Positions 4,360 through 42,596 of a stretch of 64,000 nucleotides of DNA are shown here, piece by piece. The DNA is taken from positions 72,230,001 to 72,294,000 of the forward strand of contig OX597823.1 of the NCBI GenBank assembly GCA_951406725.2. Direction: 5' to 3'. This DNA comes from Octopus vulgaris. Lineage: Eukaryota. The first letter of the stretch is position 1. Every line of letters starts with the position of its first letter. The translations under genes were made by a program, and so were the position numbers. Below the pieces are notes generated by a model. It was not told where the DNA came from. It saw nothing but the letters and a program-made list of their open reading frames with translations, and did no database searches.

Positions 4360-5146
4360 TTAAACTATGTCTTGGTCCACCCTGATGTTATTTTTATTTC
4401 ACCAATGATACAAATATCGAATGTCTTAAAAGTTATCACTTCGCATGTTTTTTTTGTTTTTTTTTCATATATAGTAATCAATATGTTGGAACAAATTAAA
4501 TTCATTGTTAGCATTATTAAAAATACAATTTGTATCAAACAAAATTTCTTGACTAGTTGACGAAGAAAATGATAAATACCGACAGTTTGATTTAGAGATA
4601 AGATTTCGAATAAAGGGTGAAAGTATCTACATAGCCATTCGATTGAATAGAATTAACAGCTATTTCACCTGTATATCATAACGTATTCTAAAAATAAGGG
4701 GGTGGAAACATTACCAAATAAGGTCTAGCTAAATGTATGAGCTAGTCACGTTTGACTATATATGTGTGTGCGTGTGCGTGTGTGTTTGTGTATTTATATA
4801 TATATGTACATATGTATGTACATATATATATATATGTGTGTGTGTATGTATGTATATATATATATGTGTGTATATATATATATATATATATATATATATA
4901 TATATATATATATATATATATATATATGTATGTATGTATATATATATATATATATATATATATAATTATAATAAAGGGTTAAATGCAACAAGTTGCTCAA
5001 AACCACATACCGAAAATATTAGAAATAGCAGCCAAAATTGGTCAGTATTTCCTCTACTAGTAAAAAGTCTCCACAAACAAACAGAATTTGTAAGCTGTAT
5101 ATGGCAAAAAAAGGCAGAAAATAACGAAAACCCAGCCTCTGGATTA

Positions 5147-5204
5147 ATTATAGACGACTCGTTTCTGGATTAGAACCGAAGGTTCATTTCCTTGTCAATA
5201 TAAT
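5147..5204 (-). ncRNA. Type I hammerhead-like fold, variant core (mirror of 6110-6167)
   Basis: Reverse complement of 6110-6167. Confidence 0.6.
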
Positions 5205-6109
5205 ATTTCCTATAGATCTAGAAATGCTAGGGGAAAAAAACTTACCCGTTACACCAGTACGATCTGCTATATCGGACGGCTTAACGGAACTGCTAGCATT
5301 CGTACATCTATACCGACATGCGAATTCATATTTCCCTCCAAAATCTACCACGTGAGCCACAAAAACATTACCAACGAAACGAAAAATTCGGAGATAACTT
5401 GTAAGGGAGCAAAAGTATTCAATATTCAATAAAGGGTGGAATATAATTAATTTAATAAAATTAATCAATTTCACCTAGTAGATTTGTCGGTATGGAAAAG
5501 ACCATATTTGGTAAGGGTTATAATAATTATAATAAAGGGTTAAATGCAACAAGTTGCTCAAAACCACATACCGAAAATATTAGAAATAGCAGCCAAAATT
5601 GGTCAGTATTTCCTCTACTAGGTTTTCGTTATTTTCTGGCTTTTTTTGCCATATACAGCTTACAAATTCTGTTTGTTTGTGGAGACTTTTTACTAGTAGA
5701 GGAAATACTGACCAATTTTGGCTGCTATTTCTAATATTTACGGTATGTGGTTTTGAGCAACTTGTTGCATTTAACCCTTTATTATAATTATTATAACCCT
5801 TACCAAATATGGTCTTTTCCATACCGACAAATCTACTAGGTGAAATTGATTAATTTTATTAAATTAATTATATTCCACCCTTTATTGAATATTGAATACT
5901 TTTGCTCCCTTACAAGTTATCTCCGAATTTTTCGATTCGTTGGTAATGTTTTTGTGGCTCACGTGGTAGATTTTGGAGGGAAATATGAATTCGCATGTCG
6001 GTATAGATGTACGAATGCTAGCAGTTCCGTTAAGCCGTCCGATATAGCAGATCGTACTGGTGTAACGGGTAAGTTTTTTTCCCCTAGCATTTCTAGATCT
6101 ATAGGAAAT

Positions 6110-6167
6110 ATTATATTGACAAGGAAATGAACCTTCGGTTCTAATCCAGAAACGAGTCGTCTATAAT
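6110..6167 (+). ncRNA. Type I hammerhead-like fold, variant core UUGACAA
   Basis: Stem I ATTATA/TATAAT; core TTGACAA; stem II GGA..GAAC(CTTCG)GTTC..TCC; A-GAAA; stem III ACGA(G)TCGT; GUC site ending 6161. Confidence 0.6.
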
Positions 6168-38678: not shown

Positions 38679-41239
38679 TATATATACATTTATGTATATA
38701 TATATATATATATATATATATATATACATATACACACATATATATATATATATATATATACATATATGTATGTATATATATATATATATATATATATATA
38801 TAAATATATATATTTCACCGAGAATCTTAACCAAACATTTTTCGAAAATTTTCACCGATAATTTTCTCAAAAAACTTTTCGAAAATTTTACCCAAGATTT
38901 TCACCGAAAATTTTCTCGAAAAAAATCCCCAAAAATTTTTGGAACACTTTCACCGTAAATTTTAACCAGAAATTTTACGTTAATTTTCCGCCAAGATTTT
39001 TCGAAAACTTTTGCCGAAAATTTTCCCCAAAAATTTTTCGAAAATTTTCATTGAAACTTTTACCAAAAAATTTTTGGAAAACTTTCACCGAAAATTTAAA
39101 CCAAAAATTTTACGATAATTTTCCGCCAAAATTTTTCGAAAACTTTTGCCGAAAATTTTCACCGAAAATTTTTGCCGAAAATATTCCCAAAAAATTTTTC
39201 GAAAATTTTCACTGAAAATTTTACCAAAAACTTTTTCCAAAATTTTCACCGAAAATTTTCCCTAACAATTTTTTGAAAATTTTTACGGAAAATTTTCCCC
39301 AAAAATTTTTCGAAAATTTTCGCCCAAAATTATTCGAAAATTTTCCCTAAAAATTTTCGAATATTTTCTCAAAAAATTTTCCACAAAAATTTTTCGAAAA
39401 TTTTCACTGAAAAATTTACCCAAAAATTTTTGAAAAATTAAAAAAAAATTTTGTTGATTTGTTGTTTCTGAAAACTTATGATCGACTGTTAGATGGTATA
39501 TAGAGGAAATTTATTTGTAAAATGAGAGGAAAATCGTATGGTATAAGCCATAGCCGCCCATAATAAAAAGGAATACGGGTGGGGTACTAGTCGCGTAGAC
39601 TGGATCCGGTGCACGCATCCGTGCATCCGCGCTAGCCAGTCGATCCTATAGCGACTTGCGTATGCAAAACATTTTTTTTAAAGTAGACCACTACTAGTAG
39701 ACCACTGTGTTTACTTTGAATAGCTACGGCAAACTTCGCTAAGCATTCAGCTATGCTCGTTCTCTTTCAACTGGAATTTAACCCCTGACCAACCCTAAAT
39801 TATTAGACATTTTGGTCGTGGCCATCCCGCTTTGTTGTAAATCCAATACTGCATTGTTCAGTTTGACTTTAAAAAAAATCGGCTGCTATTTCCAACAGTT
39901 CGTATATATACACATTTATGTATATATATATATATATATATACATATATACATATGTATATGTATATATACATATATGTGTGTGTGTATATATATATATA
40001 TAAATATATATATTTCACCAAAAATTTTTCCCAAAAATTTTTCCCAAATTTTCACCGATAATTTTCTCAAAAACTTTTCAAAAATTTTACCCAAGATTTT
40101 CACCGAAAATATTCTCGAAAAAAATGCCCAAAAATTTTTGGAAACTTTCACCGAAAATTTTAACAAAAACATTTTACGATAATTTTCCCCCAAAATATTT
40201 CGAAAACTTTTGCCGAAAATTTTACCACAAAATTATTCGAAAATTTTTGGAGAAAATTTTCACCGAAAAATTTCCCCAAAAATGTTACGAAAATTTTCCC
40301 CAAATGTTTTTCGAAAATTTTCACCGAAAATTTTACCCAAAGATTTTCACCAAAAATTTTCAGTTATGAAATTTTCAGTTATGGAAAATTTTCACCGAAA
40401 AGTTTACCCAAAAATTTACACCAAAAATTTTCAGAAAATTTTCACTGAAAAGTTTAACCAAAAATTTTTCCAAAATTTTCAGAAAATTTTGCCCAAAAAT
40501 TTTTCAAAAATTTTCACCGATAATTCTCTCCAAAGATTTTTCGAAAATTTTACCCAAGATTTTCACCGAAAATTTTCCCGAAAAATTTGCCCAAAAAATT
40601 TTGGGAAAACATTCACCGTAAATTTTAACCAAAAATTTTACGATAAAAATTTTGCATAAAAAGTTTTCGAAAATTTTCACCAAAAATTTTCCGAAAATTT
40701 TCAACGATAAAATATACCCAAAAATTTTTCGAAAATTTTCACTGAAAATTTTACCACAAAATTATACGAAAATTTTCACCGAAAATTTTATCCAAAATGT
40801 TTTCGAAAATTTTCACCGAAAAATTTCCCCTAAAATTTTTCGAATATTTTCCCCAAATATTTTTCGAAAATTTTCACCAAAAATTTTTCCAAAATTTTAA
40901 CCGAAAATTTTGCCCAAAAATTTTTCCAAAATTTTCACTGACAATATTCCCTAAAAATTTTTCGACCATTTTCACCGAAAATTTTCCCCCCAAATTTTTT
41001 TCGAAAATTTTCACCGAAAATTTTCACCAAAAATTTTTCGAAAATTTTCACTGAAAAATTTAGCCAAAAACTTTTCGAAATTTACAAAAAAATATATATG
41101 TATATATAGATTTGCATATATATATACATTACACTTACACACACTTCAAATTTACTTGCCATACATACAACTACGCACACTGGACACACACACACACTAC
41201 CACTCAACACACACACTGGCACGTTACTTACACCCCCAC

Positions 41240-41735
41240 CCTTTCCCTCCTTCCCTTCTTCCCTCCTTCCTCTTCTTTTTACCACTGACCACTCACTTGA
41301 GACTTGCTATGTCAACTACTGTTCGCCCTACCACACACACTTACATACAGACGCACGCACTAACATATACATATATTTTTTGTTTTTTATCTCGCCTCAC
41401 ACACACATACACACACGCACACGCACACACTCACACATACATACACATCATTTTTGTTACCAACCTTCCTGTCTCCACTCTTTTGGCTTTGAAAACCTAC
41501 TTTGCCCTTGTTATCCAAAACTTCCGGCCTTTCAGCATGTGTACTTCGTAAACACCAGTCGCGTTTTTTTTCCCTCTGTTCGCCCACATCAGGATCTTTC
41601 TTTCTTCTTTCTTCCTTCTCTTATGTTTCCGACGAAGAGCTCCGCTTCCATTTTCCTGAGCGCCTAATAATAATAATACTGTAATTGTTCCACGTGTTGT
41701 TGTTTTTTCTGTTTTCCCGTTTGGATTAACCTTAT
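41240..41735 (+). repeat. Pyrimidine-rich repeat, duplicated at 44372-44865
   Basis: Near-identical ~495-bp copies, both ending at (TA)n. Confidence 0.85.
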
Positions 41736-41750
41736 ATATATATATATATG

Positions 41751-42596
41751 TCAACAATTGAGGGTAAAATTAATTAATTAATCAATTTCACCAAGTATTC
41801 AGTATGCAAAGGGACCATTTAAGGCGAATTCAAATTATTACATTATATAAAAGGGCTTAGTAAAATAAATTACTTTGCCGCATACTGAACTCATTAGAAA
41901 TAGCAGCTAAAAAAACTTATTTAAAGCTATTTCCAATACTTAAAGAAAATCTCTCTCATATAGTGTTTGCTCCATTCAACTCACGAAAGTATGAGGGTAG
42001 AAACATTAAAAAATCAAATGCAAAGGTTATTTGAGAACGTACGTTTCAAGATTAGTCAGAATCGACACTTCTATCATCAGCTCAGAACTCCCTGGTTTGG
42101 ATTTGAAAGCACTGAAAGTCGGAGCATACCTTTTCGGCTTCCCATCGCCTCTGAAGATCTACTCGAAACTAACAGTGCCAGCAAATTCAAATATGCAAGC
42201 GAACAATTTCTGCTCTCCCCCTTCCACCAGCGTGGGTTAAAATCAGCAAACAACATGCTTTTTTTCGGTAAAATCCGAGGCATTAAAATAGAGGGAGATG
42301 AATTATAATTTCAACAATTGAGGGTAAAATTAATTAATTAATCAATTTCACCAATTATTCAGTATGCAAAGGGACCATTTAAGGCGAATTCAAATTATTA
42401 CATTATATAAAAGGGCTTAGTAAAATAAATTACTTTGCCGCATACTGAACTCATTAGAAATAGCAGCTAAAAAAACTTATTTAAAGCTATTTCCAATACT
42501 TAAAGAAAATCTCTCTCATATAGTGTTTGCTCCATTCAACTCACGAAAGTATGAGGGTAGAAACATTAAAAAATCAAATGCATGTTGTTTGCTGAT
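41751..42596 (-). mobile_element. Hammerhead-containing 560-bp monomer repeat (unit B), ~1.5 copies, in (TA)n
   Basis: tcaacaattgagggtaaaat at 41751 and 42311; ends with a 17-bp inverted piece (42580-42596 is the reverse complement of 42242-42258). Confidence 0.88.
42032..42084 (-). ncRNA. Type I hammerhead ribozyme
   Basis: Minus strand: TGAG CTGATGA T-AGA..GTC(GATTCT)GAC..TCT-T GAAA C(GTAC)G TT CTCA; GUU site. Confidence 0.82.

Follow-up and report, generated by a model that had tools for sequence, protein, structure and literature searches.

The window, a stretch of 64,000 nucleotides of Octopus vulgaris DNA (contig OX597823.1), contains insertions of three related non-coding families, F1, F2 and F3, together with members of two further families, F4 and F5. 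The insertions are made of arms, each arm being a run of one unit or more, or of part of one. Positions preceded by a plus sign are counted from the predicted ribozyme cut.

4962..5621, minus strand: left arm of the F1 locus (L031), 1.2 units of 561 nt; its 3' end is the fixed site A (about +195) and faces (TA)n at 4791-4964
5147..5204, minus strand: F1 hammerhead of the left arm, predicted cut 5153/5152
5618..6459, plus strand: right arm of the F1 locus, 1.5 units, period 561; its 3' end is site B (about +295) and faces (TA)n at 6456-6501
6110..6167, plus strand: F1 hammerhead of the right arm, predicted cut 6161/6162
17328..17533, no strand given: F5, a short element arranged head-to-head and flanked by (TA)n tracts, with a fold resembling a hammerhead
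35134..35791, minus strand: single F2 arm (L061) of 1.2 units, period 554, ending 3' at site A and flanked by (TA)n-type tracts (35095-35134, 35792-35863)
35310..35382, minus strand: F2 hammerhead, predicted cut 35316/35315
36477..37190, no strand given: F4, a head-to-head insertion in (TA)n, with a GC-rich unit of 360 nt and a canonical hammerhead
41751..42582, minus strand: F3 arm (L001) of 1.5 units, period 560, ending 3' at site B
41881..41906, minus strand: the 26-nt motif that the families share; its further copies begin at 42466, 35197, 35751, 5031 and 5592 (minus strand) and at 5722, 6283 and 52952 (plus strand)
42032..42084, minus strand: F3 hammerhead, predicted cut 42036/42035
42576..42649, plus strand: inverted F3 stub of 21 nt at the 5' junction, duplicated along with a TA run
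44372..44898, plus strand: local duplicate of the left flank of the F3 locus, 99% identical over 508 nt
52951..53020, plus strand: 5'-truncated F3 copy of 70 nt; its 3' end is site A, and (TA)n adjoins it on either side

Recomparison of the repeats reproduces the coordinates and the periods of 561, 554 and 560 bp in the original prediction, and the (TA)n flanks it described are real. The head-to-tail order proposed for all three loci applies to F2, where 35134-35238 recurs at 35688-35792 (period 554), and to F3, where 41751-42022 recurs at 42311-42582 (period 560). The F1 locus instead consists of two arms joined head-to-head by a 4-nt overlap. The predicted fourth fragment at 52951 exists and is flanked by (TA)n, but it is 92% identical to the F3 locus and therefore does not represent a fourth family. 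This identity, the inversion in F1 and the F4 element with its 360-nt unit at 36477-37190 had all been missed.

The supposedly fixed length of about 560 nt is only approximate, as the periods drawn from the period list spread over 526-564 in the F1-F3 families, with single outliers of 505 and 616, and F4, with its shorter unit, shows the same insertion pattern. Monomers were compared on hand-picked clean units, since units spanning an inversion confound clustering, and one row that was out of register (L146) was left out of the monomer alignment (A2). The GC content of the F1-F3 units is 0.35-0.40, and the arm maps contain no terminal repeats besides the unit itself. The two ends of the F4 insertion are an A end at +181 and a B end at +220, a pairing that recurs in 22 of 25 inverted F4 clusters counted by eye in the genome match table. 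Relatives of F5 occur at L117, L185 and L216. A motif-like stretch at 36415 sits in a 32-copy terminal-inverted-repeat element and continues differently, and was taken as a chance likeness.

As predicted, each unit of F1, F2 and F3 carries one type I hammerhead, which was read from the sequence and matched in 3/3 monomers by a descriptor that was written after the sequences had been seen and found 0/3000 dinucleotide shuffles of each. All three folds are atypical at the foot of stem II, where a mismatch or an unpaired base occurs. F1 has the U3-A8 core variant, a stem I of 6 bp and an unpaired A at this position; F2 has a C3-G8 core, a 6-bp stem I and an A.A mismatch; F3 has a C3-G8 core, a 4-bp stem I, a U.U mismatch and a palindromic stem III. 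No hammerhead family of Rfam matched the whole window or the three monomers. An earlier, relaxed descriptor found the F3 ribozyme and missed those of F1 and F2, which were read by eye, and it gave numerous chance matches in AAAATTTT satellites. Across 11 monomers the hammerhead covaries, with three unrelated stem I sequences and a switch between C3-G8 and U3-A8; the weak cases are two monomers with a stem I of only 2-3 bp and one with U4C. The hammerheads of F1-F3 are non-canonical, and self-cleavage is predicted from this covariation.

Exact matches to the shared motif number 5,064 across the genome. The motif core, CTGC, begins at +119, +122 and +130 in the three monomers, which agrees with the predicted block at 116-127 nt if this is drawn 3 nt wider. 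Of the 297 motif copies whose upstream region is clean, 223 have the hammerhead signature GAAAC..GTH 100-135 nt upstream. The 3' half of the motif pairs with a CAUACYGA strand located between sites A and B, and 10 of the 11 circular folds contain the resulting helix, in which a G-C to A-U change occurs. The monomer fold is stable (z -3.6 to -4.8), but it is branched and 58-67% paired, not viroid-like as had been suggested. Read as a circle, the unit holds ATG ORFs of up to 67-105 aa, which are not kept between subfamilies; the longest ATG ORF varies from 14 to 105 aa across the 11 monomers, so there is no conserved ORF.

The insertion footprint was established in two samples, 96 top-hit loci (160 arms) and 53 loci in positional order (80 arms). 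The 3' end lies at A (about +195) or B (+292 to +310), 95-120 nt apart, in 224/240 arms (147/160 top-hit, 77/80 positional), and adjoins a microsatellite in 231/240 (154/160 and 77/80, respectively). Head-to-head loci account for 64 of the 96 top-hit and 27 of the 53 positional loci, and their joins run through 0-6 nt of microhomology. One A arm is combined with one B arm in 72 of 76 classifiable inverted insertions (48/51 top-hit, p 1e-11; 24/25 positional, p 8e-7; against 0.5). The same type of pairing is seen at two autonomous Penelope-like element (PLE) loci, L131 and L136. Single arms end at A in 32 cases and at B in 25, and the inverted 21-nt stub at the 5' junction of the F3 locus is probably an abortive second arm. 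The longest arms reach 8-9 units, although just 4 of 80 positional arms have at least 2. The targets are TA-rich microsatellites: in four insertions into a SINE the filled TA tracts are longer than the empty ones, and the duplicate at 44372..44898 has the TA tract without F3 and represents an empty target site. The idea that the (TA)n flanks are synthesised de novo was considered but is unneeded, since empty sites carry TA tracts.

Sequence variants within these insertions point to their template. Divergence within arms, between arms and between loci is 0.65, 0.71 and 2.74% in F3, 0.78, 1.36 and 5.70% in F1, and 0.69, 1.08 and 1.65% in F2. Non-consensus bases are common to both arms at 272 sites, of which 22 are private, and at no site are two multi-copy arms fixed for different bases. 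Each insertion therefore derives from one template variant. Minor variants inside arrays are mostly singletons (79, against 11 shared), and the ribozyme junction is free of indels in 258/264. These variant data are also compatible with a homogeneous linear multimer. For F2, runs X1 and X5, from two studies and two of four runs whose RNA label is a guess, each contain one self-closing contig of 585 nt, which can also come from tandem DNA or multimeric RNA; run X7 had no coverage.

Intact ORFs of 781 aa combining RT and GIY-YIG domains exist in the genome (L121-L130). The original prediction had considered that copies might extend 5' into such ORFs; at 149 distinct loci, none is contiguous with the repeat and no arm runs 5' into one. 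Within flanks of 0.5-2 kb, PLE ORF matches occur in 5 of 195 locus records (the same 149 distinct loci), all past the 3' TA tract and none at the 5' end. Since the insertion footprint is that of PLEs and a 5' RT ORF is lacking, mobilisation in trans by a Penelope-type RT is supported, as is the proposal of reverse transcription around a circular or multimeric RNA. A partner was sought with the Pfam GIY-YIG model on the genome, 150 of 6,136 candidates being scored, and neither motif nor tail matched at the 3' ends of 50 PLE loci (L091-L140) and five neighbouring loci. The three BLAST matches in these loci were separate retrozyme relatives lying next to the PLEs. In the commonest PLE the tail measures about 40 nt instead of 100.

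It is likely that F1-F3 are non-LTR retrozymes and that a Penelope RT copies them by priming twice on a single template, which is probably circular, and the thousands of genome copies probably show unusually clearly how such an enzyme inserts retrozymes from two fixed starts. A genomic copy of more than unit length would be transcribed, the hammerheads would release a monomer of about 555 nt, and a host ligase would close the ring. The conserved structured region, comprising the shared motif and the long-range helix, may be what the PLE protein binds, as its conservation suggests. The copies themselves show entry into pre-existing TA-rich microsatellites and cDNA that starts at the fixed internal sites A and B. 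The pairing pattern suggests that each of the two target strands acts as a primer, the first at A and the second at B, with a single RNA or identical RNAs as template. The two cDNAs would vary in length, crossing the ribozyme junction and reaching as much as 8-9 units, before joining head-to-head, and failure of one would leave a single arm. Given the rest of this model, a circular template is reasonably probable as the simplest source of multi-unit, near-identical and scar-free arms. More tentatively, and at rather less than even chances, each inverted insertion may reflect one circular RNA primed twice, asymmetrically, by a dimeric Penelope RT rolling up to 8-9 turns, one subunit sitting at A in the loop of the conserved helix and the other at B about 100 nt on.

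Double priming might also take place on an uncut linear multimer of a tandem source array, the hammerhead being incidental or serving in 5' trimming. In Anolis, unprocessed RNA is the main substrate of the Poseidon element, and hammerhead mutants insert normally (PMC11167929). Both arms of two-piece inverted loci stop within 20 nt of the same coordinate at 11/22 positional loci (2.6 expected, 0/20,000 permutations), as if both RTs had run off one RNA end; this excess is lacking in the top-hit set (3/45, 3.6 expected). The 5' ends lie within 5 nt of the predicted cut in about 9/160 top-hit arms counted by eye, against about 3 expected, and this slight excess implies that some templates may be linear and cut. 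However, if the 3' start is fixed and truncation at the 5' end is random, arrays could only get shorter with each generation, yet arms of 8-9 units exist; long-array variants are mainly singletons that seldom recur between loci, and the hammerhead covaries over families that are about 60% alike. A linear multimer is thus unlikely as the general template. The 11 positional loci with matched ends are near-perfect palindromes plus tail, and the two arms are almost identical, which would also suit a single priming at B followed by fold-back and self-copying of the cDNA, with an endonuclease resolving the product at A, a step to which Craig et al. attribute the tail (PMC8557442). As a general account this is improbable: two independent cDNAs are needed at 11/45 top-hit and 5/22 positional two-piece loci, where neither arm lies within the other, and single arms reach A as often as B. 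Fold-back copying could still account for the palindromic subset of insertions.

Two further explanations are less probable still. Derivation from 5'-truncated pseudo-LTRs of autonomous Penelope elements, expanded as a satellite by unequal crossing-over, follows a proposal made for the retrozymes of vertebrates: of 57 Xenopus families, 24 match known elements, and 21 of 22 of these are PLEs. Hammerhead variants are common to the octopus families and the local PLEs, and L211 and L230 have one junction in common with different numbers of units. While an ancient pseudo-LTR origin of F1-F3 is likely, the position of the few PLE ORFs, never at a 5' end, does not fit the full scenario, and non-integer arrays, fixed 3' ends and singleton-rich variation are a poor match for serial duplication, which leaves it very improbable. 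The stable fold, the ribozyme and the unit-length self-closing contigs would also be expected of an endogenised infectious RNA replicon of the viroid or obelisk type. This origin is hardly conceivable in view of the thousands of genomic copies, the subfamilies, the retrotransposon footprint, the branched fold and the lack of a conserved ORF, and the motif is absent from the viral and metagenome contigs searched.

The novel part of the preferred reading, double priming by a Penelope-type RT, is the insertion footprint with its A and B 3' ends and their pairing; mobile self-cutting RNAs of this kind are already known in animals. A double-primed circle, if true, would amount to direct evidence, from the genome itself, of rolling-circle target-primed reverse transcription; it would also reduce the one-end tail and the inverted 5' copy of Penelope elements to a single mechanism acting in several unrelated retrozyme families and in the autonomous elements of this genome. 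F1-F3 supply a non-coding template of 555 nt, two mapped start sites, a candidate protein-binding helix and a simple (TA)n target, while the same genome offers young copies in their thousands along with intact ORFs of candidate helpers. A circular versus a linear template, and double priming itself, are therefore testable in the published in vitro system.

Schistosoma SM-alpha and newt satellite 2 resemble F1-F3 in being tandem repeats that are transcribed and bear a hammerhead of the dimer-dependent type. Their units are about 330 nt, and the newt literature considered here does not describe microsatellite targeting or paired ends. Closer to F1-F3 are the metazoan non-LTR retrozymes, which likewise consist of tandem monomers that code for no protein and each bear one type I hammerhead, with a GC content under 50%, a weak or palindromic stem III and a host genome that also holds PLEs; the U.U mismatch that F3 has at the foot of stem II recurs in axolotl HHR_Amex2. 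The predicted elements had been thought larger than known retrozymes, but retrozymes of 51-972 bp have been published, and those of ray-finned fish average 650 bp (Li, Clavereau & Pollet 2026, 10.64898/2026.07.22.740005). F1-F3 lie inside this range, above the invertebrate examples of 170-400 nt in the 2020 paper, which gave a unit range of 150-450 bp (Cervera & de la Pena, PMC7229834). Animal retrozymes show no motif pointing to a helper according to a 2020 review (PMC7761336), whereas F1-F3 keep a motif and a helix across families. The retrozyme texts consulted do not describe two fixed internal 3' ends, frequent head-to-head arms or strict (TA)n targeting. Compared with characterised retrozymes, F1-F3 are known here from their sequence, their cleavage and circles being predicted; 8 of 9 Xenopus retrozyme dimers failed to cleave.

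Retrozyme mobilisation and the tandem, inverted and tailed insertions of PLEs have been called open questions (PMC7761336, PMC8557442, 10.64898/2026.07.22.740005). Chlamys elements such as MRC1 (PMC8557442) resemble F1-F3 in being non-autonomous, PLE-dependent and inserted as multicopy head-to-tail arrays, but they match autonomous partners at the 3' end, whereas F1-F3 have no such match among the PLE ends sampled, and most Chlamys elements have no hammerhead. PLEs themselves differ from F1-F3 in having an ORF, a tail of 30-40 nt instead of 95-120, and other 3' ends, those sampled showing no match; the start sites of F1-F3 lie at about +195/+295 from the cut, in a whole element of about 555 nt. 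PLEs share the partial tandems and the (TA)n target with F1-F3, and the U3-A8 hammerhead variant with F1 (PMC4209133). In the Neptune and Naiad clades, as in F1-F3, the tail is on one end only and the 5'-truncated copy is inverted, with (TA)n as target (Craig et al. 2021, PMC8557442). A further parallel to the footprint is Poseidon PAc of Anolis, in which ribozyme cleavage is dispensable for insertion in vitro and which, like F1-F3, has two RT start sites downstream of the hammerhead; these are internal and bound the tail, both strands are primed, and a dimer is predicted (Frangieh et al. 2024, PMC11167929).

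The retrozyme class to which families F1, F2 and F3 belong is ordinary; the footprint left by their insertion is unusually clear and provides a testable record of the insertion mechanism. The positions of the three loci and of the fragment at 52951 were borne out when the sequence was re-examined, as were the repeat periods of 561, 554 and 560 nt for loci 1, 2 and 3. Locus 1 is not the single head-to-tail array described in the original prediction; it consists of two inverted stretches, or arms, placed head-to-head. The fragment at 52951 is present, not as a family of its own but as a truncated F3 member. 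The features of the window are as follows.

4962–5621, minus strand, and 5618–6459, plus strand: locus 1 (F1), two arms head-to-head
35134–35791: locus 2 (F2)
41751–42582: locus 3 (F3)
52951: 5'-truncated F3 member, 92% identical
36477–37190: F4, 360-nt unit, 51% GC, canonical hammerhead, head-to-head
17328–17533: F5, short palindromic element between (TA)n tracts; hammerhead-like fold, ~80-nt tail on one side
34788–49010: rearranged cluster with a 32-copy long-terminal-inverted-repeat element, AAAATTTT-type satellites (12–37 nt periods) and local duplications

The three families share a mean column identity of 64% in a three-way alignment, and no conservation was found for the ORFs of their monomers. 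Each unit does contain one type I hammerhead, as predicted. A hammerhead descriptor, composed with the sequences already in view, matches all three monomers, while 3000 shuffles per monomer gave no match; an Rfam search leaves these hammerheads unrecognised. Among 11 hand-picked monomers, stem I takes three unrelated sequences and measures 4–6 bp in nine, and the core alternates between C3-G8 and U3-A8, a variant known in Penelope pLTRs (PMC4209133). The foot of stem II carries a mismatch or an unpaired base in F1–F3; a U.U at this position is on record for axolotl (PMC7229834). The F1 hammerhead is one base shorter than that of a cousin at locus L117, so that F1 ribozyme activity is the most doubtful of the families. 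Monomer folding beats that of shuffles (z -4.8, -4.5 and -3.6; 100 shuffles), also for circles (z -3.2 to -8.9, from only 12 shuffles), and the predicted fold is branched and 58–67% paired. In 10 of the 11 monomers folded as circles, the 3' half of the 26-nt motif common to F1–F3 pairs with a strand ~80–95 nt downstream; a G-C pair of this helix is replaced by A-U in F3.

The window lies at G000:C10:72230001-72294000 of the 2.8-Gb genome, in which a first look gave 2274, 1088 and 1466 candidates for F1, F2 and F3, with 40 scored per family. Genome-wide, 5,064 exact copies of the motif are present, against none for the reversed control. The counts given in pairs below refer to a top-hit set of 96 distinct loci (160 arms), biased towards long young copies, and then to a positional set of 53 loci (80 arms), drawn from the first 100 motif copies encountered along contig C1, for which an intact motif was required. 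Overlapping records, the duplicated loci L163 and L236, and a single locus with an N end (L067/L070) were excluded. At G000:C13:266791-301592 (L162, L163, L067), two mirror-image copies of one F2 insertion are separated by ~30 kb, and a third F2 array lies between them, at an N gap; either a large segment was duplicated in inverted orientation here, or the arrangement is an artefact of assembly. Loci L211 and L230, 16 Mb apart, have a nearly identical head-to-head junction with one unit difference, reflecting post-insertion duplication or a common source.

The 3' ends of 147/160 and 77/80 arms fall at one of two sites counted from the predicted ribozyme cut: site A, at +184 to +209 (mostly +191 to +197), and site B, at +284 to +300 (+303 to +316 in F2). 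A microsatellite adjoins the 3' end in 154/160 and 77/80 arms, and the 5' ends are scattered across the entire unit. Head-to-head insertions account for 64/96 and 27/53 loci; where both ends of an inverted locus could be classed, A is paired with B in 48/51 and 24/25, one end being unclassed in 13 and 2 loci. Site A is situated in the loop that the motif helix closes off, which implies that the RNA reaches past A, and the cDNA start at this site must therefore be internal. At 44372–44898 there is an empty site: the locus-3 flank is duplicated at 99% identity, TA tract included, but lacks F3. For SINE insertions (n=4) the empty SINE copies already have a TA/CA tract.

The simplest template for the arms would be a circular RNA. 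The predicted cut is crossed by 136/160 and 40/80 arms, the longest of which comprise 8.1 and ~9.5 units. Ribozyme junction contexts are free of indels in 258 of 264 cases (≤3 edits only; overlapping records may recur), which speaks against routine jumps from one linear monomer to the next, although ~9/160 5' ends lie ≤5 nt from the predicted cut, against ~3 expected (by eye). In all three families the two arms of a locus diverge about as much as the sequence within an arm does and less than separate loci do, F2 being the least clear case. At 272 sites the two arms carry the same non-consensus base; arms fixed for different bases were not found where both have at least two copies, a test that few loci permit. 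Minor variants in arrays comprise 79 singletons and 11 shared variants. Every insertion is thus a copy of one variant, its units laid at once and not by serial duplication. A young homogeneous linear multimer, a less simple template than the circle, may instead have been copied. Two cDNAs are needed for 16 of the 67 two-piece loci, since neither of their arms contains the other. Two-piece loci with both arms ending at almost identical coordinates, in excess in the positional set only (11/22, against 3/45 in the top-hit set), could derive from a shared template end or from fold-back. F2 forms one self-closing 585-nt contig in each of the sequencing runs X1 and X5, many pieces in X6 and none in X7; all these data are contigs, and their labelling as RNA is a guess. 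About half or more of the F2 words occur in runs under three organism labels, and F2 may thus be common to close relatives. Loose contig ends in these data suggest additional F2-like subfamilies.

The proposed fixed length of ~560 nt is only approximate, the periods ranging over 526–564 with outliers at 505 and 616. F4, in the same window, shows the same insertion pattern with its 360-nt unit, which makes ~560 nt a family trait and not a rule. F4 has 2197 first-look candidates, ends at +181 and +220 and a ~39-nt tail, and 22 of 25 inverted clusters are A/B pairs by eye in the match table, the B class meaning a match that reaches the query end, nothing more. In L047, L131 and L239, other elements have ends that match the last ~40 nt of F4. 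F5 has relatives in L117, L185 and L216, and accounts for a spurious mir-3199 Rfam match. TA tracts interrupting the rearranged cluster took up F2, F3 and F4. The frames at 31827–34794 resemble a broken Helitron Rep/PIF1 helicase, and 26112–26648 and 60673–63922 hold what we take to be a Tc1-like transposase fragment and non-LTR-RT-like fragments with a restriction-like endonuclease.

Non-LTR retrozymes are already in the literature, as is the proposal that Penelope-like elements (PLEs) mobilise them via circles (PMC7229834, PMC7761336 and 10.64898/2026.07.22.740005); sizes reach 972 bp in the last of these, which does not support the original suggestion that the families are larger than known retrozymes. 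F1–F3 fit this kind in all features testable. Neither these families nor paired fixed ends of retrozymes are described in the literature searched, outside which lie most subscription journals, Repbase/Dfam and supplements, and a term search of the octopus repeat annotation PMC13282606, and likewise of PMC10886601, found neither. As anticipated, copies do not run 5' into PLE ORFs: matches to these occur in 5 of 195 locus records, all beyond the 3' TA tract.

The same genome harbours a young PLE (L121–L130) with an intact 781-aa ORF, in which GIY-YIG scores above the Pfam cut-off and RVT_1 slightly below; the protein carries the cysteine linker of Neptune/Nematis. Its 3' ends sit in (TA)n with a ~40-nt tail, and the PLE loci L131 and L136 are head-to-head with unlike ends. 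The retrozyme motif is absent from every PLE end sampled. This young Neptune/Nematis-type Penelope family (L121–L130, L136, L140) has an upstream 479-aa frame (L124, L126) and a U3-A8 hammerhead ~80 nt upstream of the 3' end; (TA)n also marks the ends of several more divergent PLE families.

According to PMC8557442, PLEs generally form partial tandems with an inverted 5' copy and a 30–40 bp, often single-ended tail, and Neptune and Naiad are biased to (TA)n; F1–F3 resemble them in tandems, inverted arms, one-sided tail and microsatellite target. The purified protein of Anolis Poseidon, a predicted dimer, cleaves and extends both strands, its cDNA begins at two internal sites flanking the genomic tail, and ribozyme cleavage is dispensable in vitro (PMC11167929). 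The two 3' end sites of F1–F3 and their arms on both strands match this Poseidon pattern.
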